Virus record (IMG/VR): IMGVR_UViG_3300042864_001965 | Length of the DNA stretch: 64,000 nucleotides | Strand: one strand, 5' to 3' | DNA from: a virus | Notes under the pieces: generated by a model | The model's input: the letters and a program-made list of their open reading frames with translations, nothing else | Told to the model about the DNA's origin: nothing | Databases searched by the model: none | Made by a program: the position numbers and the translations under genes | In this document: positions 2,822 to 40,863 of the stretch, in pieces | Numbering within the stretch: the first letter of the stretch is position 1 | Layout of the letters: every line of letters starts with the position of its first letter

Positions 2822-2855
2822 GGCTTTTTAAAAGATAGTATTTTCTCTATTCTAA

Positions 2856-2928
2856 TAGGTTGAGTAGGAATCGAACCTACCTAAGACGAATTATGAGTTC
2901 GTTGCCTTAACCGCTCGGCCATCAACCC
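2856..2928 (-). tRNA. tRNA with CAU anticodon (Met, or Ile2 if lysidine-modified)
   Basis: 73-nt cloverleaf: acceptor GGGTTGA/TCAACCT (G1-U72 wobble), D-stem GCC/GGC, anticodon stem ACGAA/TTCGT with loop CTCATAA, T-arm GTAGG-TTCGAAT-CCTAC. No CCA is encoded. Confidence 0.8.
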
Positions 2929-2933
2929 TTGAC

Positions 2934-3377
2934 CTATTTAGGAAAAAATAAAGTAGGAGAGATATTAAAAAAATCGGCTAATTTTTGAACGTGAATATCT
3001 GTTATCTCTCGCTGTCTATCAAAAATATCATCTAGGATTGATTGATCCTCAAAAATAGATAATAAGTCTTGCTTTTGCAAGTTCTTTAGTTCTAACAAAA
3101 ATTTCAATAGCTCAACTCCATAAATATCAGGTATTGGCTTTTGATTTTCCTCATACTCATAAATCAAAGTTCCTAAAACACTTAAATACTCCCTTTCTTC
3201 TATTGTCAATTGAATTTTATCTAATATGATTTTATCTAAAAAAGAACTGATAACTCTTTCCGTGTTTTCTAGCTCTTCCTTGTCGTAAATAGGACGAGGA
3301 GGGTATTGTTTTAATAATTCTAAGTATTTATTTGTATCAAACATAGTGTGACTGTAATCGCTGTAACTTTTTATCAT
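2934..3377 (-). CDS. HTH DNA-binding protein, HigA/COG5499-like antitoxin-type C-terminal domain
   Basis: The C-terminal LQKQDLLSIF...REITDIHVQKLADFFNISPTLFF matches the antidote-type HTH pattern. No partner toxin ORF is adjacent. Confidence 0.45.
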   Translation of the reverse strand: MIKSYSDYSHTMFDTNKYLELLKQYPPRPIYDKEELENTERVISSFLDKIILDKIQLTIEEREYLSVLGTLIYEYEENQKPIPDIYGVELLKFLLELKNLQKQDLLSIFEDQSILDDIFDRQREITDIHVQKLADFFNISPTLFFPK

Positions 3378-3418
3378 AGGTCAAGTCTTTGATTTTGTCA
3401 ATATGTTTGATTTTAAGT

Positions 3419-3500
3419 GGGTTAGGCTGGATTTGCACCAGCGTGGAATTAAATCTACAGATTTACAGTCTGTCACCTTCGGCTACTCGGTCACTAACCC
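3419..3500 (-). tRNA. tRNA-Tyr (GUA), long variable arm, atypical T-loop
   Basis: 82 nt: acceptor GGGTTAG/CTAACCC, anticodon stem ACAGA/TCTGT with loop CTGTAAA, 14-nt variable region, T-arm GCTGG-TGCAAAT-CCAGC. Position 55 is G instead of the canonical U. Confidence 0.6.
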
Positions 3501-3529
3501 TTGTTTGTTTCAATCCCTTGTCTAAATTT

Positions 3530-3558
3530 ATCTTACTATAATTCTTAATGCTTGTCAA
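3530..3558 (-). promoter_or_regulatory. sigma70-like promoter TTGACA-17-TAAGAT upstream of tRNA-Tyr
   Basis: Minus strand reads TTGACAagcattaagaattatagTAAGAT, about 30 nt upstream of the tRNA 5' end. Confidence 0.5.
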
Positions 3559-4104
3559 TCATATTGGTTTTTGATTTTCTTGATTCTTTTGAGATTCTTG
3601 CAAATTAAGAAGTTGAAGCATTGCCTCTCCTGCGTCTTTACGCGCCATGCTACAAGTCCAGAGTCTTTGTTCATTGCGCTTGATAATGATAATTTCTGTA
3701 TTAGAAACTAAACAAACTAAATCATTTTTCTGTTTTATTAGTTGATTAATGGCTTCTAATTTTTGCTTTTGTTCTAATTCAGAAACGGGTTGAGGGTTTT
3801 CTCCGTACTCTTGTGTGGAGAAAACAACAGCTAACATAAAACTTTTTGTTTCTTTAAACTGAAAACGAATAATCTGCCAACTAAATTCACCATCAGGCTC
3901 TAATTCTCGATTCCAAATATTTAGAAAGGTTTCTAAATAACCTTCTAATCCTTTTTGAGTTTGACGGTTTTTATTAATATCACTGAAAAGTCCTTGATGC
4001 TGTTGAGGATAGTTTTCAACAGGTTTTACTGACTCACTGTCTTGAATAGAGCAAGAATGACAGGGATTAAATGGAAACATAAAGGGCATATTGTTTGCTA
4101 TCAA
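3559..4104 (-). CDS. hypothetical protein (181 aa)
   Basis: Intact ORF in the co-oriented gene string; no motif recognised. Confidence 0.45.
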   Translation of the reverse strand: MIANNMPFMFPFNPCHSCSIQDSESVKPVENYPQQHQGLFSDINKNRQTQKGLEGYLETFLNIWNRELEPDGEFSWQIIRFQFKETKSFMLAVVFSTQEYGENPQPVSELEQKQKLEAINQLIKQKNDLVCLVSNTEIIIIKRNEQRLWTCSMARKDAGEAMLQLLNLQESQKNQENQKPI

Positions 4105-4151
4105 AATATTAGGAAAGTTTAATAATTTGTTACAGATTAACCATATTAGAT

Positions 4152-4376
4152 TTATTCTCTGTAAAAATTAAGATCACACCAAAAGGAATCTTTCCAAAAA
4201 TTTATCAATTGTATATTTTTTTCGGCTATTAATTTTCGCCAAAGACGAAAATTCTCAAAAAAATTATACCATCCAAAAGGAACATCTTCTCTAAGGGTAG
4301 TCCAAATAATAGGTAAATAGCTTTTGATAGTCATGACAGCAATCAAAAGGTAATAGTTTATTTTAGTCTTTTTCAT
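4152..4376 (-). CDS. hypothetical small protein, paralog of 5172..5459
   Basis: The shared C-terminal block VPFGWYNFFENFRLWRKLI matches VPRGWDNFFERFRFWQKLI in the paralog. Confidence 0.45.
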   Translation of the reverse strand: MKKTKINYYLLIAVMTIKSYLPIIWTTLREDVPFGWYNFFENFRLWRKLIAEKNIQLINFWKDSFWCDLNFYRE

Positions 4377-4655
4377 GTCTTAATAGTCTTGACTTTATTT
4401 AAATCCTACCACTTATTTTACATTTAATTTTTCAAAAGTTAATCCTAAACAAAATGCAAACCAAAGCCAAATATACCAAAACCTGAGAAACAACTCCGAT
4501 CATGTTAGCTGTAAGTTGTTAAGTCTTATGACAGTAAATACACAAGTAAAAATAATTAAATTTACAGCCACTAATAAATAAGGTTTTTCTGTTTTTTAGA
4601 CTTCATTTTAGTTTAATCTTTTTAGGTGTTCTATATTACTTTACCACAATTAAAG

Positions 4656-4847
4656 TTATTTGTCTATAACTTTGATAAGAAAATAAATTAAATTTACTTT
4701 TTCCGATGTCAGTGTTTTGATTTTCATTAAGATTTCTACTAATTTATCCTTAAGTTCTTTTTTAGTGGGTTCTGTGTCACTTGGTTCATAAATGAAAGTT
4801 TTAGCACTTCCATCCTGTTCTATTTTAATCAAAGTGTATTTTTCCAT
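4656..4847 (-). CDS. hypothetical protein (63 aa)
   Basis: ORF starts 7 nt after the stop of the upstream interrupted ORF. Confidence 0.4.
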   Translation of the reverse strand: MEKYTLIKIEQDGSAKTFIYEPSDTEPTKKELKDKLVEILMKIKTLTSEKVNLIYFLIKVIDK

Positions 4848-4853
4848 AACCGT

Positions 4854-5168
4854 TTACAATTCTATTTCATCATTACCAGTAAGAAATCCCGATATATCGA
4901 AATGATATTCACTGTCACCATTTTGGGAAACTACTATTCCCCCAAACTCTAAGAGTTTATTGTCAAGAAATTGCTTGGATTGTTTTAAAGAAATACAGTT
5001 TTCTATGGCAAATTCCTTAGCACTAATCGGTTTTTTGTACCGGTATTTAAAGTCTATATCAAGTTTTTTGTTTCGAGTGTCAGCCCACGAGAAATAGGCT
5101 AACTATGTTCCCAAGAGAAATCCTAGTAATAAAGTTGGTATTCCAATAAGATAAATTTTGTGATTCAT
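4854..5168 (-). pseudogene. membrane-anchored small protein ORF interrupted by one in-frame TAG (5103-5105)
   Basis: MNHKIYLIGIPTLLLGFLLGT-TAG-LAYFSWADTRNKKL... stays in one frame for 104 codons. The part after the TAG has no start codon of its own. Confidence 0.5.
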
Positions 5169-5171
5169 TAT

Positions 5172-5459
5172 TTATTCTTTATAATTATTAATAGTTTCCC
5201 AGAAATAAATTACTAGCAGAGATTTATTTCTTTTAAGTATTAGCTTTTGCCAAAAACGAAACCTTTCAAAAAAGTTATCCCATCCACGAGGGACATCAAC
5301 AAAAATACTATCTAAAATGATAAGTAGATACCTCTCGACAAAATTGCGTATTGTTAAGATTAAAGAACGTGGTTTTATTTCCATTTTTTTTAGTTCCGCT
5401 TTGGTCAATTTTTTCCTTAAAAATTGACCAATCTTTTTATCTAGTTGTGTTTGATTCAT
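5172..5459 (-). CDS. hypothetical small protein, paralog of 4152..4376
   Basis: Shares the GW.NFFE.FR.W.KLI block with 4152..4376. Confidence 0.45.
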   Translation of the reverse strand: MNQTQLDKKIGQFLRKKLTKAELKKMEIKPRSLILTIRNFVERYLLIILDSIFVDVPRGWDNFFERFRFWQKLILKRNKSLLVIYFWETINNYKE

Positions 5460-5480
5460 TGTTTTTTTCGGGTTTAATAT

Positions 5481-5942
5481 TTAGTTTAATCTTAATATAT
5501 CTAGCCCTCGATTTCTGATTCTTTGAGCAAGGTCTTTATTAAATACTTTTGATTTTTTAATCACAGTAATCTGATTGCTTGGCCAGTATTCTAGCAGAAA
5601 ATCAACGAGTTCTATTGAAGTTGTGTGTATTCTAGCTTCTTTGCTACATCCTTTTAGTAATTGGTAAAAAAGAAATAGTCCACTAAGCAGGTCTTTTTCA
5701 ATTACCCAAAATACTAATTTAATTAATGTATTGCTAAGTCGCCAGTGTTTTAGAAGTTGGCATAGTTTTGTTTCCTCTAATTGCCAGTAACTGAAAAAAT
5801 CCAAAACATTAGAAATTACTGGGTAGTCGCTTCTACTTACGAAGTCAGATACTAGAGCATCGATTGCTTCTAGAGATTGACACATCCCGATGGATGCAAT
5901 CGATAATCCCTCTAATTTATATCCTGAGATAATTTGTAGCAT
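5481..5942 (-). CDS. hypothetical protein (153 aa) next to the CRISPR trailer end
   Basis: Intact ORF; no motif recognised. Confidence 0.45.
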   Translation of the reverse strand: MLQIISGYKLEGLSIASIGMCQSLEAIDALVSDFVSRSDYPVISNVLDFFSYWQLEETKLCQLLKHWRLSNTLIKLVFWVIEKDLLSGLFLFYQLLKGCSKEARIHTTSIELVDFLLEYWPSNQITVIKKSKVFNKDLAQRIRNRGLDILRLN

Positions 5943-6005
5943 GGTTTTGGAGTTTTGTTTTGTTTCCTTGCCTTAGTTTGCCTTGCCTTGTCTTGTATTT
6001 GTTTC

Positions 6006-6551
6006 CTTGCAATTTACTTAACAAGTCAAGCCGATTGTTACAAAAACCTACCATAGGATGATATACAATGGTACAACTCTTGCAATCTACTTAACAAGTC
6101 AAGCCGATTGTTACCGGCTAAAAACATTCGCTAATCGCGTCGGTAAACTCACTCTTGCAATCTACTTAACAAGTCAAGCCGATTGTTACCTAAGTCGATC
6201 ACTTGGATAAAACCGATATTCTCTGGCTTGCAATCTACTTAACAAGTCAAGCCGATTGTTACAATTGCTATAGATACTCCATATAGTAAATGTGGCCCTT
6301 GCAATCTACTTAACAAGTCAAGCCGATTGTTACCATTAAAGGCTCTAAGGTTTCCTGAGTTTTGGATACTTGCAATCTACTTAACAAGTCAAGCCGATTG
6401 TTACATGACCCTCAAAATGTCACGACCCCAACGTTAAAAGCTTGCAATCTACTTAACAAGTCAAGCCGATTGTTACCTGTGTGGATGAGGCCTATCATGC
6501 TATCTGAATTGGCAACTTGCAATCTACTTAACAAGTCAAGCCGATTGTTAC
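6006..6551 (-). CRISPR. CRISPR array, 8 x 36-nt repeats and 7 spacers
   Basis: The plus-strand repeat CTTGCAATCTACTTAACAAGTCAAGCCGATTGTTAC starts at 6006, 6079, 6154, 6227, 6298, 6369, 6441 and 6516. The 7 spacers are unique and 35-39 nt long. The repeat at 6006 has one substitution (AATTTAC). A degenerate terminal repeat distal to the nuclease gene suggests minus-strand transcription from the nuclease side. Confidence 0.95.
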
Positions 6552-8233
6552 CCAGTCTCCCAGAGTGTAAGCTGCGTATAGCCTGCGTTGACTGTTTGCG
6601 CGGGTTGCGAGTGGATCGACCTTTTCCTTGTTTTTTTCTTGGGTGTCACTGGCTCGGAGGTCAAAACCAGTAAGGTTTCGAGGGTTTCTTCCCCAAGTAA
6701 CAATCGGCTGGACTTGTCAAGTAATTCCTCCTGCGCTGATTCCTTATCGAAATCCTTCAGAGGCTTAACTTCCCCGGTACAAGCCGGGTAGCTTCTTACG
6801 AAGTCTGCTTTCCCTAAGATGTTGATTGCGGCGGCCACATCTCTAGGTAAAGTACATCCACACTCTAAACATTTATGGGTGCGGGTTGATAAACTTTTTT
6901 TAACACGATTGCCACAGCGAGGACAATCCTGGCTGGTGTAAGCTGGTTGAACTTTGATAAACTCTCGGTTGGGAGTTTTCATTTTCGTTTCAAGAAAACC
7001 GGTTAATTGTCCTAAACTAGCATCAGCAAAGGATTTATTTAATCCCCCTTTGGCTTTCGCGTTATTGCGTTCGTAGCCTTTACCGTCTTCTCTTTTTTTC
7101 GGTTTAGGTCGTCGCATTAAATTCTTTAAGTTGAGGTCTTCTACGGCTACAGCGCCATGATTTCTAGCAATATCGGTACTTAAGGCATGATTAAATCCTT
7201 TGCGTTGTCTTGCTATTTTTTCGTGAGTTTTGGCAACTTTAGCACGAGTTTTAGCGAGATTTTTGCCGTCTTTATTTTCCCCTGCTTTATACTGTCTAGC
7301 GGTTTTTCTTTGCAGTCTTGCTAGTCTTTTTTGCCGTTTTCTATAGTATTTGGGCGGGTCAATTTGTTGCCCGTCGCTGGTACTAATTATATATTCTAGT
7401 TTTACGTCAATACCGATTGCTTTATCGGAATCAGGTAGATCATCTACTTCAAATTCACCAAATAGACTTAGATAATATCCCGATGGGTATTTGATAATTG
7501 ATACAGTAGAGGCTTTTCTGTCACCCCACCGAATGTCTAAGGTATTGTTGACAATCTTTAAATCGCCTAATGTTTTGCCACAGCTACCTATAGATATTTT
7601 ATCCCCTTTTCTAACAGCGCAATTGCTGATCTCAGAATAAAGAGATTTAATTTTATCTTCTTTTCTTTTAAATCTAGGAAGTTTTCTGTCTAAATTCTTT
7701 TTATCGAGTTTGGTGTAAGCTTTCCAAGAATCAGCAAGCTTTTTTAAAACCCCTTGGACAAAAGCCATAGGGATGTCCTTGCATAGTTCTGGACATTTTT
7801 CTTTTGTAATACAGCCACATAACCCAAAATAATTATCAGATTTTAACCGCCGTTGAATAGGGACATGAACAGGATAAGAGTGACCTGTTTTTTGTCTTTT
7901 TTCTCTAGCTATCTGTATTTTAACTTTTTGCTTGCCAGTTAAATATTTGGGGGTGTAAAGGGGATTAGGAAGGGATTTACCTTTTTCGTTTTTCAGGGAG
8001 TCAATAAATTGAGGTTTTTTAGCTAAACGACGTTTAACCCGTTTAACTGGTTTTCCTGTTATTTGCTCAAGCTCGTCGTAATACTTATTAAGCTGATATT
8101 CCATCAGTAGCTCTAGTCCAAAATTCCAGACAGCTTTAAGCTCGTCCATCCAGCGATCAATATAGGCTCGCTGAGTGGCATTAAGGTTAAGCTTTGTGTC
8201 CGCAATAGTTTTTTTGACTAGCATGGCTTTCAT
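6548..8233 (-). CDS. TnpB-like / Cas12-family RuvC nuclease (candidate type V CRISPR effector)
   Basis: RuvC-I is AIGIDVK (D codon 7406-7408) and RuvC-II is AVAVEDLN (E codon 7139-7141). A CPRCG...CLECG zinc ribbon precedes RuvC-III RDVAAAINI (D codon 6839-6841). Candidate ATGs are at 8251, 8233 and 8224; 8233 has a GAAGG Shine-Dalgarno. The TAA stop (6548-6550) lies inside the first CRISPR repeat. Confidence 0.85.
   Translation of the reverse strand: MKAMLVKKTIADTKLNLNATQRAYIDRWMDELKAVWNFGLELLMEYQLNKYYDELEQITGKPVKRVKRRLAKKPQFIDSLKNEKGKSLPNPLYTPKYLTGKQKVKIQIAREKRQKTGHSYPVHVPIQRRLKSDNYFGLCGCITKEKCPELCKDIPMAFVQGVLKKLADSWKAYTKLDKKNLDRKLPRFKRKEDKIKSLYSEISNCAVRKGDKISIGSCGKTLGDLKIVNNTLDIRWGDRKASTVSIIKYPSGYYLSLFGEFEVDDLPDSDKAIGIDVKLEYIISTSDGQQIDPPKYYRKRQKRLARLQRKTARQYKAGENKDGKNLAKTRAKVAKTHEKIARQRKGFNHALSTDIARNHGAVAVEDLNLKNLMRRPKPKKREDGKGYERNNAKAKGGLNKSFADASLGQLTGFLETKMKTPNREFIKVQPAYTSQDCPRCGNRVKKSLSTRTHKCLECGCTLPRDVAAAINILGKADFVRSYPACTGEVKPLKDFDKESAQEELLDKSSRLLLGEETLETLLVLTSEPVTPKKKTRKRSIHSQPAQTVNAGYTQLTLWETG
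6697..6723 (-). ncRNA. anti-repeat (candidate tracrRNA core) inside the 3' end of the nuclease ORF
   Basis: Plus strand GTAACAATCGGCTGGACTTGTCAAGTA equals the reverse complement of the repeat at 25 of 27 positions. One of the two differences would give a G-U wobble in an RNA duplex. The true RNA ends are unknown. Confidence 0.6.
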
Positions 8234-8260
8234 GGATCGACCTTCTTTCATTCTTATTTA

Positions 8261-8290
8261 AATCTACCATAACCCTGCTAGAAATGTCAA
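8261..8290 (-). promoter_or_regulatory. sigma70-like promoter TTGACA-18-TAGATT for the nuclease gene
   Basis: Minus strand reads TTGACAtttctagcagggttatggTAGATTTAAAT. A near-identical copy lies at 8703..8732. Confidence 0.6.
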
Positions 8291-8299
8291 GTAAGAAGC

Positions 8300-8671
8300 C
8301 TAAAGATTTTTTGAGATACCAGTCTCTACATCAGAACCTATAGCCCAACTTTTGTAAAAGTCAAAGCCAGTAGTATCAATATGAAAGGGAAACTTTAGCG
8401 ATTCCCAACATTCTAATAATCTTGGCACATCAACAATCTGAGACTTATGATTTAATCCTGTTTCAGTAATAATAAACTTTTCAAATACTGTAGGCACGAT
8501 TTCAATGTGAATATAGTTAGTGTCGTCAAATTTATCCGATTTTTTAGCTAATTCAGAAGTAATTTTAACAAGAATTTCTTTTGTAAGCAGTTTTTTCCAC
8601 GCAAAATACTCTTTATTGTAATTACTTGAATCTACATAAGCCACAAATTTGATAATATAATCTGCATTCAT
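8300..8671 (-). CDS. hypothetical protein (123 aa) immediately upstream of the nuclease gene
   Basis: Intact ORF with its own copy of the nuclease promoter; no motif recognised. Confidence 0.5.
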   Translation of the reverse strand: MNADYIIKFVAYVDSSNYNKEYFAWKKLLTKEILVKITSELAKKSDKFDDTNYIHIEIVPTVFEKFIITETGLNHKSQIVDVPRLLECWESLKFPFHIDTTGFDFYKSWAIGSDVETGISKNL

Positions 8672-8702
8672 AAATATTTAAAGTAGTGCTAAACTATATT
8701 TA

Positions 8703-8732
8703 AATCTACCATAAGCCTACTAGAAATGTCAA
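8703..8732 (-). promoter_or_regulatory. second copy of the TTGACA-18-TAGATT promoter
   Basis: Minus strand reads TTGACAtttctagtaggcttatggTAGATTTAAAT, about 30 nt upstream of the ATG at 8671. Confidence 0.55.
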
Positions 8733-8878
8733 GTAAAAATAAAGATATAAATTATTATCCCCTCAACGCCCGTATCTCGCCACTTGAAGAGAAAAAGCTA
8801 AAAAAATACTGTGAAACTTACCATCGGTCAATAACCGATGTAGTCCGGGAATTGATTAGAAGTTTACCCGATGACTAA
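8726..8878 (+). CDS. possible ribbon-helix-helix (CopG/Arc-like) protein, 50 aa
   Basis: Not in the ORF track because it is shorter than 60 aa. MSSKNKDINYYPLNARISPLEEKKLKKYCETYHRSITDVVRELIRSLPDD has a beta-strand then two-helix pattern. It is divergent from, and overlaps, the promoter at 8703..8732. No clear Shine-Dalgarno. Confidence 0.35.
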   Translation: MSSKNKDINYYPLNARISPLEEKKLKKYCETYHRSITDVVRELIRSLPDD

Positions 8879-8910
8879 TACTCAAGAGTGTTGTCGGGAT
8901 AGCTAGTGTT

Positions 8911-8940
8911 AAAAGTGCCAGTTCACAGACCGGCACTTTT
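8911..8940. terminator. bidirectional stem-loop terminator
   Basis: AAAAGTGCC-12 nt-GGCACTTTT lies between the convergent ORFs 8726..8878 and 8945..9691. A- and T-runs flank the stem. Confidence 0.6.
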
Positions 8941-8944
8941 AACT

Positions 8945-9691
8945 TTATTTTCCGATTAACAGTTGACGGTTTCTAGCCTTAGAAAAAAGATGCTTAACTT
9001 CCTTGAGGTTTTCGGTGGGGACATAGGATGCTTGATTAACTCGCAACCCCTGACACACTAAATGAGAGTGTCCATTCTTCTCTAACCAACGCTCTAACTC
9101 TCTTCCAGACTTGAATCCTAGTTCTTTCCCTAACTCAGCAGTAGAACGACCCTCAAAACTCACGTTTCGTCCGTTTTTACAGATAATTGTCTCGGTGACT
9201 TTTTCAACCTTCTCGATCACAATATCTGGACGGCCATCTAACAAGGCTAAAACCTCAGCACCATGTATTAATCGAATTGCGTCACGCCGATCCATGTAGT
9301 AGGTTTTAGCTTTTGTCAGTTCTAACTCAAGTTCTAATTCTCGAATACGTCCACTTTGAGCGGGGATTACTTCTTTGATAAGTTGCTTTGCTTGACTAAA
9401 TGCCTTGACTAAGTTGCGCTTACAAGCAATGACCTGTGAAGTATTTCGAGACAGTGTCATCAAAAAAGTTGCTTGCTCTTCATTCAGGTAGCAGTAACGC
9501 TCAGGACGACCGCCGCTAGAGCCTTCTAGGGGTTTCGACATTTGAAATGCGACAACTCCAAACTCTTGAATCTCGTTAATGTATTTTTCTATGGTTTGAC
9601 GCAAGGCGCGGTGTTCAATCCCCAACTCACCAGCAATCAAACGAGAATCAACGACAAGACAATCATTCTGTGATACTATTTCAATAGCCAT
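8945..9691 (-). CDS. Rha-family phage regulatory protein
   Basis: The N-terminal VVDSRLIAGELGIEHRALRQTIEKYINEI...RPERYCYLNEEQATFLMT fits the phage pRha domain pattern. Confidence 0.6.
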   Translation of the reverse strand: MAIEIVSQNDCLVVDSRLIAGELGIEHRALRQTIEKYINEIQEFGVVAFQMSKPLEGSSGGRPERYCYLNEEQATFLMTLSRNTSQVIACKRNLVKAFSQAKQLIKEVIPAQSGRIRELELELELTKAKTYYMDRRDAIRLIHGAEVLALLDGRPDIVIEKVEKVTETIICKNGRNVSFEGRSTAELGKELGFKSGRELERWLEKNGHSHLVCQGLRVNQASYVPTENLKEVKHLFSKARNRQLLIGK

Positions 9692-9719
9692 ATTGGCCTC
9701 CTATTCAGGTAATGTGGTT

Positions 9720-9744
9720 AGTCCCCCGTTGGTACCGGGGGCAT
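9720..9744 (-). promoter_or_regulatory. conserved leader hairpin (copy A)
   Basis: Minus strand reads ATGCCCCCGgtaccaaCGGGGGACTAACC directly downstream of the -10 box. Homologous hairpins lie at 29764 and 43212. Confidence 0.6.
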
Positions 9745-9751
9745 TGCTACA

Positions 9752-9781
9752 ATTGTACCATTTCAAATAGTTGCTTGACAA
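9752..9781 (-). promoter_or_regulatory. sigma70-like promoter TTGTCA-18-TACAAT for the Rha gene
   Basis: Read on the minus strand: TTGTCAagcaactatttgaaatggTACAAT. Confidence 0.55.
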
Positions 9782-9809
9782 TTCTAGTCAGTAGGAAGAA
9801 ATAGTCAGG

Positions 9810-9842
9810 GAAAGGGGATTAAGATAATCCCCTTTCTTTTTT
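9810..9842 (+). terminator. stem-loop followed by a T-run (terminator-like)
   Basis: GAAAGGGGATTA-aga-TAATCCCCTTTC followed by TTTTTT. Which plus-strand transcript it would stop is unclear. Confidence 0.4.
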
Positions 9843-9881
9843 AGTGTCCTATGCTGGCAGTCATTGTTAGTTTGTAGTTAA

Positions 9882-9905
9882 ATTGTAGATATTGTTATTA
9901 ACAAT
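9882..9905. repeat. palindrome-family member (ATTGTAGATA-TT-GTTATTAACAAT)
   Basis: Read directly; imperfect copy. Confidence 0.7.
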
Positions 9906-10085
9906 AAAACCCTTACAGGGATTAGCTTTTACGCTTTGTTAATACTGTTAACGCTATTCCCCGATATTATTTTTTTACACTCTTACTGCTGAGGCTGTCT
10001 TGCCCCTTTACCCTATTTTCTTTTTTTCTCTATACGACATCAACGACATCGACAAAGCCTGAAACCTAGACAGGGCAAAGATTTC

Positions 10086-10111
10086 GATTGTTAATAACCC
10101 TATCTACAATC
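10086..10111. repeat. palindrome-family member GATTGTTAATAA-CC-CTATCTACAATC
   Basis: Read directly. It is preceded by GAAACCTAGACAGGGCAAAG, as in the copy at 25..50. Confidence 0.8.
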
Positions 10112-10126
10112 GAATTACTTGCGAAC

Positions 10127-10549
10127 TCAAACCCGACAATTCCGCATCAGAGCAGTGAAGCCCGCTTGGGCAAAATGTTTGTCAAAAGCGAGTGCTTCTG
10201 TGATTCCATTTTCTTCCATTATTTTGAAAGATACGCAATTTGTATGACTCCATGCTTTGTCTTTACGCTGTTGATATAGTCTTAATCCTTGTTCAAATTG
10301 CTCACTGGTTTGGGGAACAATACGAACATTGGGGTTAGAACGCAAATTTTTAGTTAGCTCTATGGCTAAGTCACGGAAATACTCACCACGTTTAGAAAAG
10401 TCGTTTAAAACTTCGATAAGGACGGCTTCACTGGTGACAATATAGACGGGATGCAATGTTTTTGATAGCTAAACAGCTTTTTTATGCAAATTATCACTGG
10501 GGTTAAGTAGGGCAACCCAATAACCTGTATCGGCGAAAACGACTCTCAC
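10127..10549 (-). pseudogene. PIN-domain (VapC-like) toxin gene with in-frame TAG (10469-10471)
   Basis: A GTG overlapping the antitoxin stop (TAGTG) opens MRVVFADTGYWVALLNPSDNLHKKAV-TAG-LSKTLHPVYIVTSEAVLIEVLND...FDKHFAQAGF, all in one frame (140 codons). The usual third acidic residue appears as N (SHTNC). Confidence 0.6.
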
Positions 10550-11377: not shown

Positions 11378-11809
11378 TTATTTTACCACTCCTAAAGTAA
11401 GTACTCGATAAATTAGTGCAGGCGGGTATTCATGAATATAGGTCTTCATCACGCCATTTATTGAATCAGCATGGATGTACTCACTATCTCCCAGATAAAT
11501 CCCCACATGACCATTTACTCCTGACTTACGAAACATCAAAATATCTCCTTTACACAAATCACCTTCAACTCTATCTAGTAACCGATCAAGGAATTTGACT
11601 AAGAAGTTATTCCGGGGAATCCGTTCGTAGTTTTCAATAATGAAATTATGGGGCAAGAATCCGACTTTAATCCCTACGCCAGCAATAAATCCTACACAAT
11701 CGGTTCCAATCCCTTTAAGCGATTGACCATGAAACCAAGGAGTACCGAGCCATTCAAGAGCTTCGGTAACAATTTGATTACCCAAAGAATCGTTTTTTAG
11801 TTCGTTCAT
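11378..11809 (-). CDS. NlpC/P60-family tail-associated peptidase (lambda K-like)
   Basis: Catalytic Cys context GTDCVGF and GHVGIYLGDSEYIHAD His motifs. It lies immediately downstream of the tape measure gene. Confidence 0.75.
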   Translation of the reverse strand: MNELKNDSLGNQIVTEALEWLGTPWFHGQSLKGIGTDCVGFIAGVGIKVGFLPHNFIIENYERIPRNNFLVKFLDRLLDRVEGDLCKGDILMFRKSGVNGHVGIYLGDSEYIHADSINGVMKTYIHEYPPALIYRVLTLGVVK

Positions 11810-14800
11810 TTTGTGTATTTTCCCGTTCTTTCAATTGATTCAAACTATAACCCATATCATTCCGTGATTCTACAGTCACGTTATTGGTGCTATTAATTAC
11901 CAAAGACTGATTAGAGCTATTGTTATTTGAGGTTGTGGAGTAATTAGGCTTACCCCCGACAAATCCTCCATTAGCATAGTTCTTAATAGGAGCATTATTT
12001 CTGTACTCTAGATATGCTTCTGTTTCTTTAGGGTTAAGAACCAATTCGTCTTCATTGGCTACGATTAATCGAGGTTTTCGGCCTCCCGACATTGCTCGTT
12101 CGCGCTGAAAAGCTGAAATGATATTTTTCTCTATCGGAGCATTGGCATCCCCAACTTTCCCACCATCACTAAATAGGCTGAATCCTGTACCTAGAGAAAA
12201 AGCAGAAGCCGGAGCAGAAGCAAAGCTAGAGGCTCCTATACTACCAAGTAATCCAATCGAACCAAGTCCCCCAAGCCCTCCACTAAAAATCCCTGTTATT
12301 CCGCTAAGCAAGCCATTAAATAAGCCACCGCCGCCACCTCCCCCAAAGATAGAGGAAAAGATGTTACCTACTGGTTTAAAAATGCTACTGAGGGCATTAG
12401 TGAAAAAGTTACCTACTGGCCCGATGATTGCATTAAATACTGACTCAAATGCCTGAGTTATTGGTTTAGTAAAACCATCGATAGCAGAAGTTAAAGCATC
12501 GATAGCAGGCCTAGTGATACCTTCGACAAATTTAGTTGCAATATTTAATCCAAGACTACTAAAAGCCGATCCTATTCCTTTTCCTTCTCTAATATCAGAG
12601 AAAAAGCTTTCAGCTGCGCCGCGATTTGGAGAGGCATCTAATGCTACTCGCTCTAATCTTAATTCTGCAAGTTTTTCCCATTCTGATCGGATATTAGCTA
12701 CAAAATCAGCGTACTGTGGTAAGTCTTTGTAAGGCTCTAAATAATCTTCTAGTTCCTCTTTTTCTTTTTGTAGGCTAATACGTTCGGCAAGGATAGCAGA
12801 ATCATCAAATAAAGTCGGTCGGGATTGATTCTCTAATTTCATTCTTTGAACAGTTAAATCATTTAACCGATCACGAATACTCCTGACTGTATCTCTGGTT
12901 TTTCTAAATGATGCTTCTAAGCTGGCTACTCCCTGATTCTTGCCTAATTGTTCAATCGCTTGATCAAGAATTGCTACCTGTTCTTTAGCTAATTCAGCGC
13001 GTTTAGCTAAAGCATCAATACTATCTGTCATTTCTTTGAGAAATTCAGGGGGGAGAGCTATACCTTTTCTTTGAAATTCTCCTAAGATTTCTTTTATCGC
13101 GTCGCTGTATTTTTGTTGAGCCTCAGCATTTAAAAGTAAAGTCCGTCGCTGGTCTTCTAGTGATTCAATCTGAGAGCGATATTGTCGAGAGACTTCTGTA
13201 GCACTCTTATTAATTTCTTCTTGTACTGTCAGATACCCTTTAGAGTTGATAGTCAAATCAGCGACATTCTCGGAAGCATCTCTTAAAGTACGTTCTAATG
13301 CACGGGCATCTTCCTCTTGCTGCCGTCTAAATTTCATTGATCTGTCAAGAGCATTGTTTAGATTTTGTTGCTCTTCTAGTTGTCTTAAGAACTCCTCAGC
13401 GTTTTGATTGGCTATTTCAGCTTTGCGATTTTGATCAGCCGCTGCGCCAAGATTACCTGTAGGAAGATTAGGAACGGGCGGTAAATTAGGACTCTGGAAG
13501 TTAATCGGATTGTCTTTAAGAACCGGTGGTAAATCGGCATCCCAGAAATTATCTTGATTTTGATTAGGTAGAGTCGGTAATTGGGCTATAGGTGGAGGAC
13601 TACTAAATTCTGGACCACCTTTTCCTTCTTTTGTTTCTTCTTTTGTTAAAACACGGGCAGGAGAAGGATTAGGGGTGGAGTCTTTAATGGATTGGCTAAT
13701 TGCATTAGTAGCATTAGTTATTATTTTTCGATTATTTAGTTGATTGCCGTTAATGTTTGCATAAGCAGTTACAATATATTCTTTCCCATTAATGTTTACC
13801 AGTCCAACATTACCAATAACTTTAGAGTTATTTCCAATTTTTCCGCCGATTTCATTATTATACTTAAAATTTCTTGTTTGTCTCAGAGATTGTTCAGCTA
13901 ATTGACTTGCAGGATTTTGATTTTTAATTAAAGACTGCATAGCTGACGTTACGTCTTGTGCTGTTGAAATGTTTGGAGTTCCACTGCCTGGTATATTTAA
14001 ATACCTAGAAATAGTAGTGTTTTTATAACCTTCTTTTCTGGCTAATTCTGTAGCTTTGGTTAGCCCACCTAGCCGATCAATTAAAACATTAGTTGCCGTA
14101 TTATCTGACTTTTCTAGCATTAACTGTACTAGCTGTTCAACTGTTTTAACTTGATTGGCTTTTAATTGTCCGTGTGGATCAACCAAAGGCAATTTTATGG
14201 CGATAGCATCTTTTAAGGAAAGTTTTCCGCTTGTTATTTCTTTGGCAATCAAATCAGCAATAATAACTTTAATTGTACTAGCTGGTGACGCTGGGGGTGT
14301 TTGAGCGTTTTTAGAATATACAGTTTTTCCGCCAACTTCTTGAACTAAAACAGATTGAATATTTTTTGGTAATCTGTTGGTGATTTGTTGCTGAACTGAT
14401 GGAGAAGGGTTAGGGGTGGAAGTTGATGGAGTGGGTAAACCGCCTTGATTTCTTCTGATTTGTCGAATACGGTTTGATGCTCCGCTGTTAGCAGGATTGC
14501 CGTCATATCGCAGTGCGTCTAGTTCGGATTGAGTACGAGGGGCATTTGGTTGGTATTTTCGTAAAGACTGATCGTAAACCTTTAACAGGTCTTCCATCCG
14601 TTTCATGCCTTGCCCTGGGTAATTAGCCCCTGGGAAAGATGCCCATTCTTTGCGGGTTGCGTTAATTGCCCCACGAATATCTCCCTTAAGAAGCTCGTCT
14701 AATCCACCTCTCATTAGAATACGGCTTAATGCGACTAAATCTTGAGAGACAGGAGAAAAATCTTTTAATCCTAATTTTGCTTTTTCTTCATTCCATGTAA

Positions 14801-17800
14801 AATCCATGATCTGGTATCTTCCAGATGCCGATGAACTGGTTGATCCAAACGGAATTCTTTGGCGTGGATGGTCTGCGAAAGAACTAAATTGTCCATGGCC
14901 AAAAAGGGTGTTATATCCCTGATTTGGCATCTTGGCAGTACCTTCTGCGTAAGCAATAACATCAAGAAAGGCCTTGACGCGAGGATTGTTTAAATGCTGA
15001 GATAATTCTTGACCGCGTGGTGTTAACCCTTTGGAAATTGAAGACGACTGTGGCGGTGGCGGCGGTAAAAACCCTCCCCCATTCCACACAGGAGCAGGGG
15101 TGAAATTACTAGGTGCTGGTAGTATCAAACCTTCCTTAGCTTTTCTAATTCCCTCCGCAGTTTCTTCTATACTTTTTATTAAGTCTTCTCCAGAGGTCTT
15201 AATATTTGGGGGAATAGCCACTAACTCAGAATTGATTAATTTAATTGGTTCTGGAAGTGTATTAAGATTTGTGACAATATCCTTGATTGATTGGGGAATA
15301 AAGCCTAATTCTTTATTGGTTTGTCGGATTAAGTCAGCTAAGGTGCGATTAAGGTTTTCTTGAGTCCGTTTAATATCCTCAATCGTTCTTAGTCGGCTTC
15401 TTTCAGCGTCTTGCTGTTGCTCTTGTAAGTTACGAATATTTCTTAGAGTAGAGATATAGGAAGTTTCTATCTCCTCGGTTCGGGATTGGAAGGTGCGACC
15501 GCGACTGGCAAGGTCAGCTTGTCCCTGGACAAATTCTAGGAAAATGTCACCTAATTCTTTACCAGCGTCGCTTGTACCGGGTATTAATAAACGGTTTTTA
15601 ACTTGCTGTACCCTGATTCTATCGGTCGCATCCAGTAGCTGATTTTGGGCATTTAAGAGGTTCTTATCGAGTTCCCTGACTAAATCAGTGTAACTTTCAG
15701 ATAGAGAACGATTTCCTCTAAAAGCTGACAGTTGAGCATCTTCAATCTGTCTTCTATAATCTTCAATCTGACGATTAAAGTCGATTATCTGACGGCCAAG
15801 GTTGCGGTAATAGTCTTGTAGTGATGTTTGTTGCTGTAATAGGTTAGCGCGGGCTTGTTCTAGGGCTAATCGGGTATTATCAACCTCTTGCTGAATCACA
15901 TTAGGGTCGTCTGACGCACTTTCTAATCGACGATAAGCCTCTCCTAATAATCTCTCTTGGTTGCGAACTTCTGATAAGGCATCCCGATAGGAAGCGGCTG
16001 TCCCCCCAAAGGGTAATTGCCTTAAAGTAGCAATTCTCTCGTTGACATTGTCGCCGACTATGGATGCTTGTCTGGCATTTCTTGCACGCTCTCGTCTAGC
16101 GTTAGCAATTTCTAGTTCTGTATCAACAATTGATTTATCAATAGTTAAAGTTTGTCGTCTAATAGATGCTTGCTGTTTAGCTGTTTCTAATACCTGGTTT
16201 AATTCAAAAGGCGCTTGATCTCCCAACTGCTGTAACCGATCACCTATAGCTTCTGGTGACACACTTCCCTGCTGTAATGCCGTTCTAAAATCTATTCCAT
16301 TTAATTCAGGCATTAACTCAGTTATTCGCTGATTAATCTGATCTGTTAGAGTGTTTTGTAATTCTTTTTCTTTAGTTGCCAGTAATCCATTAAGCGAATT
16401 AAACTGATCCTTGACAATAGATAGGCTCTGTTCTCTAACGGTCAAGTCTATTTCAAACGGCTTCAGGTTCCCAGATAAAACTTGTCGTTTAATATCTGTT
16501 TCAGACAAAATAGTTCGACCACTAGAGACAAATTCAATATTAGATAAAGCTCTTGCTACTTTATTTATTTGTTCTGTTAATCGTTGATAGTTGACTAAAT
16601 TCTCTTTGACTGCTTCGTTATATTTTTCTTGCGATTCTTTTAATTTTCTAAGTTGAACTTCAGTAATTTCTAGCTGGATACTAGCATTATCTTTTTGGGA
16701 ATTAGAAGACTCTGGATCGTCTAAAACTTTTTTAATTGCTGTAATTCTTTCTTCTGTAGATGCTATCTCATTAACAATAAGCCCAATTTGAGGAAAGTAT
16801 TTTTCCGTTAAAGCTTGTATTTCTTGGTTTACTTTCGCAATTTCTTGACGAACAGATGTAGCTTTTTTAACGTCAGCATCTCCACTAGCTATGATTTCAT
16901 CTATCTTGAGGTCTTTCGTTTTTTGCCGCAATGTGTCAAGTTTACCCGTAAATTCGGTAATCTTTGTATCACTAAATGTGTCAGTTGATAATTTTAAGAT
17001 TTGTGTTGTATCACTTAGTCCCCCCGCAGCAAACTCTAAACTTTTATCTCTTTCTCTGTTGTTTTTAAATTGCTGAATTGCGGTTGCACTATCAGTTATA
17101 ACAGTAGAAGCTTTAGGTATAGGTAAAGGTTTTTCTAGTAATCGTCTCAATTCTTGTAACGATTCTTGAGTTGATTTAAGGGATCGTTTAGACTCTTCGG
17201 AGCCTGCGTTGATGTATTGATAAAGCCCTTTAAAAGCTTCCATTACACCAAAGACTAAAGCAGTCCATCCTAGCCCTTTAACAAATCCTATACCTATTTG
17301 TGCAATTGATGCTTTTGTAGATGCTGCGGTAACTCCTAGTGCTTTTAGCCCTAACTTTAAAAGACCAAGCCTGTGTAACATTTGAACAAATACACCCGAT
17401 ACGACAATCCCCATCGAAACAAAAGTAGCTACAATTTTATCTCCATGATCCTCTAAAGTCCTAAGTCCATTGATAACTGTAGGTATCCCTAATTTAGCCA
17501 CTTCTAATAAAGGTTTTCCCATTTCTATGCGAAGCAAGTTTAATTGATTTTCAAGTTTTGCAACTTGAGCAAAAGCCGTGTCATTAATTACATTAATCCC
17601 TCCTGCTGATTCTAAAGTAGTTTGAGTTGCAAATTTCGACAAAAATTCATCTGATGCTACTGATCCAGACTCAATTAATTTAATAAATTCTTGAGACGTT
17701 ACACCATAAGCTCTAGAGGCAATCTGTAACGCGCCTGGCATTGCTTCACCTAACTGAGAGTTAAGTTCTTCCATTGAAACACGACCTTTACTAGCTATTT

Positions 17801-20800
17801 GAGTAATAGCTAGTAAAGCTCTGTCTTGCTGTTGAGAATTAGCACCTCTAGTAGCCAATCCTAATGTTATTCCTTCAAAAATTTTATCTTTTTGAAACTC
17901 TAGTGAAGTGTTTATTACAGCAGCACTAAACTGCTGATAGTTTTTGGCAGAAGACAAAAAAGATGTTCCAAGTTTATCTGCTTGTACTTTTAGCCTAGAT
18001 AAAGCAGACTCAGCGTCGTCTGTGGTTAAAGATAAAGCCATTTCTAACCGCTCTGCTTCAATTGCTGTTTGAAAAGCTTCTTTTCCAAATTTATTTAATA
18101 AACCAATAGTTGATTCAAGGACGTTAAAACCAACTATACCTAATATTGCGTTTCTTATTAGTCCAGCAACTTTCTTAATTGGTTCTGGTAATTTATCAAG
18201 TGATCTTTCAACTTTATCAGCAATGGTGCTAAGTTGCTCTAGCTTACTTTTACTTTTAAAATCATCAATTTTATCAAGAATCCCTCCAATATTAAAAACT
18301 TTTCTCCCTACCTGTTTAATATTTGTTTTTATTGTTTCACGGTTTAGGGGTTGCATTTGTTTAGCAGATTCTTCCATCTCCCATTGTCTAAACTTTACTT
18401 CATTTCTTACATTACTAGGAAGTGCATTAAAAATTCTTTTCCCTGCTTTTTGGACATTAGTTTTTAAGGATTCACGGTCTAAAGATTTTACTTTCCCGAC
18501 AAAATCTTTTATCTCTATCTCCTTAAATTTTAATTCAGTTGTTATTCCATCTAGTCCTAGTATTAAACCTCTTTTGATGTCACGACCAATTCGCATCATA
18601 ACTTTTGATGGAGATTGAATCTCAAGTGTATCTCTAATTGTTTTCGGTAAGGTTAAAGCAATTTCCCGCATTTCTGCATCTAAATCACCAGACTCGCTTT
18701 TAATTCCTATTTTTATCCCTTCTATAATGTCAGAGCCAAGTCCTTTAGTCTTATTTTTATTTGCTAAAACAGGATTTAAGCTTAAGATTAGTTTCTCTAA
18801 ATTAGCCTCTATTAACTCTTTATTCCCACCAGAAGCTATTGATTTTGCCGATTGTTCTATAGCCTTTGCGAATAGAGTTTTAAAGCCTACTGTAGTAGTA
18901 TTGACACCAGTTTTCTGAATTTGTTGAATTAGTCCTGATTTAATAGGAGATAATTCTTTTATACCAATTGTTTCTTGAGCAGTCTGAACTTTTTTTCCTG
19001 TACTACTTAAGTATCCTTTTGCAGACTGAACAGAAGCACCGACTCCCCCAGAAGCTATAGAAGTGGGCTGTCCAGCTTCTTTGAGTAATTTTAGTATGTC
19101 TTCTAAATCAGAAGAGGCTTGTTCTTTGGCAATTAATATTTCATTAGCTACTTTTTTTGCTTGGTCTAATTCACCAGAATCTATTAATGTTTTTAATTTT
19201 TGATAACGATCACTAAACCATTTTCTAATTGCGTCAGTTTGAGCCTGTGCTTTAACAATATCAGCAGATGCAGGATTACTTTGAATTAAAGACTTTAAGT
19301 CTTTTGTCTGTTTAGACAGTGACACAAGTTCTTTTTCTTTAACACCTATATTGCTACTAACTTTATTGTCGGTTGTTATATTTTTAGACGGGTTATTTTT
19401 TGAACTAATACTAGGAATCTCAAACGATTTCTCTTCAGTGCCTAATTTAATGTTAGGAATATTGGTTGCTACTATACTATCAACTTTTAAATGTTCTAAA
19501 GGTTTTGTAGCTTCTTTGACTTCTTTTAGCTGTGTTTCAATAGCTACTAATTCTCTTTGCTTTAATTGCAAAGATGACATATCAAATAGTTCTAATTGAT
19601 CAGGAATATCTTCAATATTTTCCTGTAATTTATCAACTTCTTTATTCAATATCTTGATAATTTCTGCGTTTTCAAGGTAGTCAGAAGAAGAATGTGACGC
19701 AATATCGGAAATAACTTGACTTTGCTTGGATACATCTGATGTCCCCATAGTTTGTTCTGCTAGTCTAATAGGGTCATTCTCTCCTATATAACGAGAAAAA
19801 TTATCCATTTGAGTAGTCCCGACCATTGACGGGGTAGCAATAGCTACCCCTTTTATATTTTCAATACCAGCTTGGTTTGCCAATCTAGTCGCACCTTCAG
19901 AAACAAAACCCCCAGCAGAATAACCAAGTAAATCAATTTGAGCATTAGGATTTAATTCTCTAGCCTTGATAACTGCAGCAAGCATTGAAACTGAATCTTC
20001 GTTAGTCCCTGACAATCCTTGCCCCACTGTTTGAGCGGCTGCTTCACCAGCCCATTTCAAGGGATTATCTTTAATGGATGTACTTAAATCAGTTGCTTTA
20101 TTAGCAATAGGGATAACTAAAACCCCATCTTCTAGTTTTGGTTGAAGATTTTCAGCAATTTCTTTGCTTCCTTCTCCCTGTTTACCAGCAAAACCCCCAG
20201 AAACAAAAACTATTTTTTTTGCTTCACTTACAGCTTTTTCGTCTAGTTGGACTGTTGCTGATTGTTTTCTAGCTTTTGCGATAGACTCACCTGATTTTAG
20301 TTCTTTTCTTGCATTAGCAAAAGTATCGATAGGAGACATTGCAACTTGTCTCATTGAATCAGATACTTTTAACAATTGTTTTGCTAACTCTTGTGCTTTA
20401 CTAGGGTCTTGAGTATTATAAAATTCAATGGCTAACTTTTTTAATTCTGCCATTTCTTCTTTTGTTCTTTTAGTTGCGTCTGCTATAGCCTCAGAACCTT
20501 TTTGTGCCGATTCAGTTTCTAAATGCTCGTTTAATACTGTTTTGCCTTTTCTAACTGTTTTCCCAGCAAGCTTACCGAGATCGGATCCACCAGTTTCGTA
20601 CAAGTTTGTTCCTGCTTCTTTGTCAAAAGCTTTAATATTATTCCTGGTAAATATATCCGCGTAAGTGTAAGCCGCGCCTTCTGAATAGCTCTTTAAAAAG
20701 TTGGCAGGCATTGACATTACTGCACTGACAAAATTCTTTCTAGTTTCAACAACTTTTAGTATTGCTGGTAATACTGCTGACAAAATTTTGGTCAATGATC

Positions 20801-40776: not shown

Positions 40777-40849
40777 GCGGGGTGAGTGAAATGGTTTACA
40801 CATAGGCCTCATAAGCCTAAAACACTAGGTTCGACTCCTAGACCCCACA
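40777..40849 (+). tRNA. tRNA with CAU anticodon (Met or Ile2)
   Basis: Acceptor GCGGGGT/ACCCCAC with a C2:A71 mismatch, D-arm GTG-AAATGGTTTA-CAC, anticodon stem TAGGC/GCCTA with loop CTCATAA, T-arm CTAGG-TTCGACT-CCTAG. Confidence 0.7.
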
Positions 40850-40863
40850 CTAAGGAACAAAAT

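Follow-up and report, generated by a model that had tools for sequence, protein, structure and literature searches.

Type V-U2 CRISPR systems, whose effector is named C2c8, have been known since 2017 without a described guide RNA, and the locus studied here raises the question of where such an RNA may be encoded. This locus lies in a viral DNA stretch of 64,000 nucleotides (nt), the IMG/VR record IMGVR_UViG_3300042864_001965 (hereafter, the window), in which a C2c8 gene is adjoined on the same strand by a CRISPR array. An initial annotation, made from the sequence alone, had pointed to an inverted copy of the repeat (anti-repeat) inside the effector open reading frame (ORF) and to a stop codon formed by the first repeat, and had read this geometry as that expected of a TnpB omega-RNA split into a tracrRNA (trans-activating CRISPR RNA) plus CRISPR RNAs (crRNAs). 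On comparative sequence evidence, we consider it probable that the effector gene has a dual-coding 3' part of about 350 bases, specifying a disordered protein tail together with a guide-RNA scaffold, anti-repeat included, for the crRNAs of the V-U2 array.

The 567-amino-acid (aa) product was placed in C2c8 by the curated NCBIfam model NF038192 (V_cas_c2c8; 361.2 bits, cutoff 350), and its homologs are named 'type V CRISPR-associated protein C2c8' at NCBI. Pfam recognized the TnpB-type domains OrfB_IS605 and Cas12f1-like TNB, and the RuvC residues D282, E371 and D471 are intact, corresponding to invariant columns in an alignment of 28 homologs. In Foldseek and profile searches the closest structure was Cas12p ('Cas12 hacker', 9jfs), followed by TnpB, Cas12f and LaTranC. 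No Pfam match to Cas1, Cas2 or Cas4 was found in the seven neighbouring ORFs scanned, within about 3.4 kb around the locus (2934-10456), and the four nearest of them were also without an adaptation-gene match in NCBIfam; likewise, no transposase was found among the neighbouring ORFs scanned (Pfam, NCBIfam), and no transposon ends were seen nearby. The locus has the V-U2 layout: an array beside an effector of TnpB size, and no adaptation genes among the scanned neighbours.

The window was compared with about 40 related loci (L numbers); relatives in genome contigs were recovered by an alignment-based scan, a single-protein scan of the same contigs having given none. The same gene, at 97-98% identity and with the same repeat, was present in about 27 contigs from IMG/VR and metagenomes, and one more carries it at 93%. 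The metagenome scan returned mainly ordinary TnpBs and only about eight useful loci. Among isolated phages, the locus DNA had no match, and the sole C2c8-type match in a protein search was that of Aphanizomenon phage CL131 (38% identity). All genome hits were cyanobacterial except L007, a C2c8 locus in a metagenome-assembled genome labelled Acetobacteraceae, where either wrong binning or a genuine exception in host range may be involved.

The repeat reads GTAACAATCGGCTTGACTTGTTAAGTAGATTGCAAG in the minus sense (36 nt), with its gene-proximal copy at 6516-6551 and a distal copy, carrying one substitution, at 6006-6041. Reading by hand and an inverted-repeat search both recovered the anti-repeat: the arms 6525-6551 and 6697-6723, of 27 nt each, are 93% complementary and 145 nt apart, and the duplex contains 25 Watson-Crick pairs, one G.U pair and one C.U mismatch, so that the annotated 25 of 27 matches with one G-U are exact. 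The anti-repeat lies 116 nt past the RuvC-III Asp (D471, codon 6839-6841, minus strand), where about 115 nt had been estimated. When the repeat was paired with the 600 nt located upstream, RNAduplex gave -43.0 kcal/mol, compared with -20.8 ± 2.4 in shuffles (minimum -28.8; z about -9), and the ungapped complementarity score was 24.3 against 8.9 ± 1.0. Folding of the transcript agrees with this co-folding, the anti-repeat being paired with repeat 1 in the minimum-free-energy structure of 6515-6900 (z = -4.3).

The anti-repeat keeps its place while the repeat changes. When the best RNAduplex of each repeat against the locus's own 330-nt tail was taken, eight lineages with quite different repeats displayed an anti-repeat of their own ending 128-145 nt before repeat 1, at -23 to -50 kcal/mol: the window (-43.0 kcal/mol, ending 144 nt before repeat 1), L248 (-49.7, 132 nt), L249 (-39.8, 132 nt), L112 (-33.3, 132 nt), L119 (-28.8, 145 nt), L244 (-25.2, 128 nt), L164 (-24.9, 141 nt) and L122 (-23.1, 144 nt). 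Ranked among the tails of 19 loci, the own tail came first for the window, L112, L119 and L164, second for L244 and third for L122. In an alignment of anti-repeat and repeat from seven lineages, 77.4% of cells pair, as opposed to 61.3% in shuffles (0/500 reached the observed value), compensatory change on both sides was seen in 21/34 pairs, and the covariation score was 0.50, with slid controls at 0.08-0.15 (at most 0.153).

Close relatives show the same constraint at short range. The 27 nt code for LLDKSSRLLL (aa 510-519), and the only variants found within them concern codon 512, GAC to AAC or AGC (Asp to Asn or Ser), which turn a G.U into an A-U pair and an A-U into a G.U pair, retaining pairing while the amino acid changes; in the approximately 27 close relatives and in the relative with the 93% identical protein, the anti-repeat is unchanged or altered in this pair-preserving manner. 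Within this stretch, the sequence is apparently set by the RNA and not by the protein.

Upstream of the anti-repeat, still inside the coding sequence, a predicted scaffold of three hairpins (H0, H1 and H2) is conserved. When the 150 nt after RuvC-III were folded in 24 loci, the same hairpin series was obtained from different sequences. In a plain MAFFT alignment, 83.7% of cells pair (61% in shuffles), with compensatory change in 21/25 pairs and a covariation score of 0.574 (0.198 in shuffles; slides at most 0.186); in the model-based alignment the values are 86.8% (60% in shuffles) and 24/25 pairs. The outer stem of H2 pairs in 98-99% of cells, with compensatory change in 5/5 pairs, and the peptide encoded by H1 shifts in step with its stem (YPACTG, YRAWAW, YPTLMG, YRTCVR and others). 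H1 is the GC hairpin that had been annotated at about 6770-6790; it also forms in the minimum-free-energy fold. Since G.U pairs are frequent, the structure can be assigned to the gene-sense strand, which fixes the reading direction of the array as well. Every C2c8-type locus, eight of them outside the seed, was matched by a covariance model of the scaffold (R1), with 47-113 bits (window, 91.6 bits), and none of about 60 ordinary TnpB loci was; in Rfam, no family was found within 6500-6900 at E up to 1. As a side observation, extra R1 matches occur away from the gene 3' end in L118 (3545-3666), L009 (2457-2595 and 3082-3198) and L121 (2727-2843, minus strand, and 6686-6809); they look like duplicated or mobile scaffold copies, one of them inserted in frame midway through the effector gene (P0016 compared with P0014).

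A further link between scaffold and array is provided by the loop of H1. In 19/19 array-bearing loci tested, positions 6-9 of H1 (NUUN) are complementary to the four bases that end the repeat, through five pair types (CUUG/CAAG, CUUU/AAAG, CUUC/GAAG, GUUC/GAAC and GUUG/CAAC, with G.U in three loci); by formal count, 76/76 cells pair, values reached by 0/500 shuffles. A sixth type, AUUG/CAAU, is found in the single-repeat locus L002, and the loop predicted the single-repeat ends located after the stop codon: GAAC in L121, CAAU in L002, and CAAG or UAAG in L008, L166, L009, L116 and L004. By covariation, the locus is thus predicted to have the pseudoknot between scaffold and repeat 3' end that is typical of tracrRNAs, and its anti-repeat near the array is, at the sequence level, the arrangement of the tracrRNA-dependent type V systems (V-B, V-E, V-F, V-G, V-K, V-N and V-P).

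Regarding the tail itself, the initial annotation had described roughly 90 low-complexity codons after the RuvC-III motif, terminated by a TAA contributed by the repeat, and had proposed examining whether this tail is conserved as protein or only as RNA. The stop was as described: the ORF ends ...TGG GAG ACT GGG TAA, where the last G of GGG and the TAA are nt 1-4 of the repeat. In 18 array-bearing loci with distinct repeats, taken from cyanobacterial genomes, phage contigs and metagenomes, the frame remains open for 87-155 codons past the RuvC-III Asp, while the other two frames contain 2-18 stops, and the stop codon starts within -23 to +28, counted from the base that opens repeat 1. One clade has repeat sequence as its last 6-9 codons; in L001, GGT GAA ATT TCT TCT AAT ACT TCT TAG are the first 27 nt of the repeat. 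Comparison of these sequences indicates that the family characteristically has its stop codon within or next to repeat 1. As a separate observation, it is the repeat that codes for the C-terminal LLLWDVG of L007. There are 96 codons after D471, the last helix in the AlphaFold model ends at residue 481, and aa 494-567 are predicted to be disordered (predicted local distance difference test, pLDDT, below 50). The tail is nevertheless not junk, as it contains conserved protein motifs, and the homologs keep both these motifs and the RNA scaffold.

Nearly all full-length C2c8 proteins (most of P0001-P0082) share a predicted disordered tail with a K/R patch followed by a C-terminal motif (QLTLW, QLELDLW, QLSLW, QLQLF and QLTLF, for example; L117 and L121 end in QLQLF), most members having W in place of F. 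The codons of the motif leucines vary freely between loci (CTT, TTG, CTC, CTA, TTA), which places the constraint on the protein; tail and motif are both absent from the ordinary TnpBs (about 400 aa) found in the same search. On this comparative basis, the tail is inferred to be translated and conserved as protein, besides the constraint on the RNA. In the window, the peptide carrying the motif is AGYTQLTLWETG, the motif residues being Q560, L561, L563 and W564. Located in a disordered terminus with pLDDT below 50, QLTLW resembles the published beta-clamp-binding consensus QLxLF / QLxLxL (PMC4564189), and in the papers searched no link between Cas12 proteins and the sliding clamp was found. We regard this sequence resemblance as a lead, not a result.

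All eight repeats, and not the first alone, retain the 5' part complementary to the anti-repeat and the CAAG end. The seven spacers of the window (6042-6515) are not shared with the near-identical phages (effector 97-98% identical), which hold 94 distinct spacers, and therefore the array appears to turn over quickly; among relatives, arrays reach up to 28 repeats. No protospacers were found in the relatives' loci or the window; the phage collection, searched with 38 spacers, gave none either, nor did IMG/VR when two conserved spacer cores were looked up by exact match. Across the window array and those of L081-L161, several spacers group into families that hit a common target region in variant form (e.g., ...AATCTGGGGAACCCTCCCCACA). 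Separately, another CRISPR array, whose repeat differs (CTTTCAATCTCTCTAAACCCCTATTAGGGATTGAAAC), lies in L250 at about 2050-2400, approximately 150 nt downstream of its single-repeat C2c8 gene; the end of this repeat resembles V-U2 and V-K repeat ends.

Complementarity, conserved position, covariation, strand and maintained ORF were computed directly. The scaffold-repeat covariation, the promoter-like site upstream of the gene, the lack of a detectable terminator between gene and array, and the fold joining anti-repeat and repeat 1 led us to propose that the 3' part of the effector mRNA acts as guide-RNA scaffold. In this model, a transcript would start at the promoter upstream of the gene and probably run through the ORF into the array. 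The anti-repeat would pair with nt 1-27 of the repeat (R:AR-2) and the CUUG loop of H1 with the CAAG repeat end beside the spacer (R:AR-1), and the two interactions together would build a guide RNA to be loaded into the RuvC-active nuclease. Repeat 1 could pair within the same molecule, giving an omega-RNA-like contiguous guide, while repeats 2-8 would need the scaffold of another molecule, that is, a tracrRNA. By analogy, the 27-bp duplex might be cut by RNase III, or the effector might do the processing, in the way that TnpB processes its own mRNA; the guide-loaded effector would then target DNA. As protein, the tail would provide a linker, a basic patch and the terminal QLxLW motif.

Several observations weigh against this proposal. 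The largest clade of the family, with GGTGAAA repeats (L001, L003, L006, L108-L111), has no significant long anti-repeat by RNAduplex or ungapped scores, compared with shuffles and with the tails of other loci; its matches of 5-10 nt are indistinguishable from shuffles, and those in L006 (CTCAAAGCTA and ATTTCACC) and L003 (TTCGATCTC) are suggestive only, as is the short match AGAAGAAA(T) read by eye in the tails of L001 and L247. On account of this clade, the long R:AR-2 duplex is not universal; by sequence comparison, an anti-repeat that is long and continuous characterizes a single clade. The GGTGAAA clade does have scaffold and pseudoknot, and the long duplex may be dispensable, the 27 bp being a lineage-specific reinforcement. 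Also, the register of each locus in the seven-lineage alignment was picked for maximal pairing, which inflates the raw percentage, although the shuffle and slide controls share that choice. At the pseudoknot, L005 (a truncated gene in a degenerate locus) fits at 3/4 positions, and the single-repeat boundary of L250 is ambiguous. No minus-strand internal promoter or terminator delimiting a tracrRNA was found from gene to array in a scan limited to sigma-70 consensus sites. Finally, while the tail is being translated, the ribosome would open up the scaffold of the same molecule, and one transcript supplies one scaffold for eight repeats, a stoichiometry that the model leaves unexplained.

These points bear differently on the alternatives. 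The inverted copy could be a neutral by-product devoid of RNA function, either a repeat fragment inverted by recombination or a chance low-complexity match; the support for the scaffold is sequence-based and part of the family has no clear long anti-repeat, as such an origin would allow. A match some nine standard deviations beyond shuffles, recurring at one position in eight lineages with unrelated repeats, with 21 of the 34 pairs compensatory and with pairing preserved in the close relatives, leaves this explanation hardly any probability, and chance or a recombination remnant was rejected on the conserved position and the covariation. Slightly less improbable, and still very unlikely in our view, is that the tail features serve the protein only, or a CRISPR leader used in integration by the Cas1-Cas2 of the host, the RNA structure being incidental to codon constraint. 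The region directly upstream of repeat 1 is a leader by position, and selection on the protein is evident in the maintained frame and in the synonymous variation of the motif; protein constraint, however, cannot yield stem strands that change together while the amino acids change, nor does it account for a loop co-varying with a repeat end hundreds of bases away, and both layers of constraint are present.

A closer competitor, which we nevertheless deem unlikely, holds that scaffold and anti-repeat act intramolecularly only, as an omega-RNA-like mRNA 3' region serving the first repeat-spacer unit or allowing the protein to regulate itself by binding and cutting its own mRNA, spacers 2-7 being used without a tracrRNA. 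The minimum-free-energy fold does join anti-repeat and repeat 1 within one molecule, several relatives have one repeat-like unit only, and no separate promoter emerged from the sigma-70 scan; moreover, TnpB reportedly processes its own mRNA into omega-RNA (as Nety et al. are said to have found in 2023). Yet fast-changing arrays of up to 28 repeats would be hard to explain if only the first unit were usable, and every repeat keeps both segments able to pair with the scaffold. Intra- and intermolecular pairing are in any case not mutually exclusive. The scaffold serving the whole array is thus the reading we retain, and the omega-RNA-like layout of an anti-repeat followed by an array, as first annotated, finds support in the position conserved in eight lineages, the scaffold covariation, the pairing of loop and repeat end, the family-wide stop and the single-unit relatives.

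Overlap of omega-RNA with the tnpB ORF is established (e.g., ISDra2, IS200/IS605). The window resembles TnpB systems in that the candidate scaffold lies over the 3' end of the nuclease ORF, on the same strand and directly upstream of the guide, that the predicted pseudoknot uses the guide-adjacent scaffold end, and that the protein has a compact RuvC and zinc-finger core (profile E 1.4e-48 to 8bf8/8exa; Foldseek 5.8e-16 to 8h1j). In addition, some C2c8 relatives have a single repeat-like unit: L240 (about 4340-4390), L242 (about 4400-4440), L245 (about 2135-2170), L008 (4663-4685), L002 (4519-4535) and L121 (4603-4620); these are the omega-RNA-like state of the C2c8 family. The predicted structured RNA overlapping the effector 3' end in the sense strand is thus shared with OMEGA systems. 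A single guide at a transposon end with TnpA or insertion sequence (IS) ends is not, as the guide-adjacent segment of the window is repeated as a 36-nt CRISPR repeat, in eight copies with seven different spacers. Further differences are that the window ORF spans the whole scaffold and stops in repeat 1, whereas that of TnpB ends about 20-30 aa after RuvC-III, that R1 had no match in related TnpB loci, and that no transposase was found among the scanned neighbours.

Cas12p (type V-P, 9jfs) is the closest known structure (Foldseek E 1.6e-19, profile E 1.1e-66). In the part of the preprint available to us, it is described as a phage-encoded protein of 500-700 aa, with repeats of about 37 nt, dependence on a 185-nt tracrRNA whose pseudoknot with the repeat's final 4 nt comprises 4 bp (AAAC:UUUG), and a disordered C-terminal domain after RuvC-III; the same text regards the guide-adjacent pseudoknot as a usual trait of Cas12 tracrRNAs and relates the RNA architecture to those of TnpB and Cas12k (bioRxiv 10.1101/2025.01.20.633832). 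To judge from covariation, the H1-loop pseudoknot is the guide-adjacent pseudoknot described for Cas12p, and it also resembles those of TnpB and Cas12f/k/p guide RNAs. Nonetheless, the window protein is not a Cas12p: identity is about 20%, NCBIfam places it in C2c8, and its pseudoknot is CUUG:CAAG instead of UUUG:AAAC. Within the comparison set, L124 was considered as a Cas12p locus and rejected, being only distantly related.

With TranC (LaTranC, PDB 9jfo), the concept of an omega-RNA split into tracrRNA and crRNAs is shared, as is the presence, in the C2c8 family, of single-guide and array-bearing members; such functional splitting is attributed to TnpB-to-Cas12 intermediate lineages (Jin et al., Cell 2025, as cited in the portion of PMC13565253 consulted). 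The difference lies in the protein, which resembles LaTranC only weakly (E 2e-21) and only over the zinc-finger/RuvC region. As for Cas12k (type V-K, formerly V-U5), it is likewise cyanobacterial, with a tracrRNA between effector gene and array on the same strand and repeats of 37 nt with a similar 3' end: V-K repeats end in GUUGAAAG, that of the window in AUUGCAAG. Within one genome, near-identical spacers and conserved repeat ends can be common to V-U2 and V-K arrays. In contrast to the window effector, Cas12k is nuclease-dead, is accompanied by Tn7-like transposition genes and has an intergenic tracrRNA, and the Foldseek similarity is weak (E 6.7e-3).

Regarding V-U2 itself, the C2c8 of phage CL131 was reported without a tracrRNA (PMC6293099), a 2024 review table, in the portion available, appears to list V-U2 without one (PMC11641405), and no description of a V-U2 guide RNA was found in the literature searched. 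Within the covered parts of these sources, the overlap of omega-RNA and tnpB ORF and the splitting of omega-RNA in other TnpB/Cas12 lineages are already known, and what is new is a candidate V-U2 scaffold inside the effector gene. The features of the locus are compiled in Table 1.

Table 1. Features of the C2c8 locus, in window coordinates, from the upstream promoter-like site to the array.
Feature	Position	Strand	Basis or remark
Promoter-like site TTGACA, 18 nt, TAGATT, with TG	8261-8290	minus	Top scan match, 10/12; located shortly before the ATG at 8251
Type V-U2 effector gene (C2c8), 567 aa	6548-8251	minus	NCBIfam, Pfam, RuvC triad
Candidate tracrRNA / omega-like scaffold: H0, H1, H2, then anti-repeat	6697-6813	minus	Codons ~480-519; covariance model R1
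Predicted hairpin H0, CUUC-GUAA-GAAG	6792-6803	minus	81-82% of cells paired; CG/UA/AU exchanges
Predicted hairpin H1, CCCGG-CUUGUA-CCGGG	6773-6788	minus	Stem covariation; minimum-free-energy fold
H1 loop CUUG, predicted pseudoknot R:AR-1 with last 4 nt (CAAG) of each repeat	6780-6783	minus	Covariation
Predicted two-tier hairpin H2, outer CCUCU/AGGAG, inner GAUUUC/GGAAUC	6728-6763	minus	Covariation
Anti-repeat (R:AR-2), 27 nt, against repeat nt 1-27	6697-6723	minus	Inverted-repeat search, RNAduplex, covariation
Basic patch KKKTRKR, aa 538-544, in disordered tail	6620-6640	minus	K/R-rich stretch kept across homologs
C-terminal motif QLTLW, aa 560-564	6560-6574	minus	Family consensus Q[LM]x[LIF](x[LF])[WF]
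Stop codon TAA, nt 2-4 of first repeat	6548-6550	minus	Sequence
CRISPR array, eight 36-nt repeats with seven spacers of 35-39 nt	6006-6551	minus	Repeat search

The window corresponds to a tailed-phage genome: it codes for the terminase large subunit, ribonucleotide reductase, a tail protein and a regulator of the Rha family, and it has three tRNAs. This Rha-family phage regulator (8945-9691, minus strand) and an ORF with a PIN domain (10127-10456, minus strand) lie immediately upstream of the CRISPR-Cas locus, and a single ORF of 3262 aa occupies 11778-21566 (minus strand). The tRNA genes, at 2856-2928 (minus), 3417-3500 (minus) and 40777-40850 (plus), are two tRNA-Met (CAT) and one tRNA-Tyr; an Rfam 'Plastid-ycf2' match at 2855-2928 (plus), scoring under the gathering threshold, is the antisense of a tRNA.

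If the proposal is correct, a single-guide design could be derived for a nuclease of about 490 aa lacking the disordered tail, consisting of 6813-6697, a linker, the repeat and a spacer. The locus also illustrates how the scaffold was missed by annotation because the RNA lies wholly within coding sequence: such an RNA escapes gene-centred approaches. A more far-reaching version, in which the C2c8 DNA performs triple duty as scaffold, array leader and disordered tail, the family is a living TnpB-Cas12 series and the tail motif docks the nuclease on the host beta sliding clamp, is a tentative idea that we think rather doubtful as a whole; were it true, clamp docking would direct a phage-borne nuclease to replicating DNA, for instance that of competing phages or plasmids. 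With regard to the family, the RNA pairing visibly limits the amino acids of a disordered protein segment, an instance of dual coding, and the C2c8 homologs, with single-guide, short-array and long-array members, would constitute a natural series for the growth of CRISPR arrays from transposon guide RNAs.

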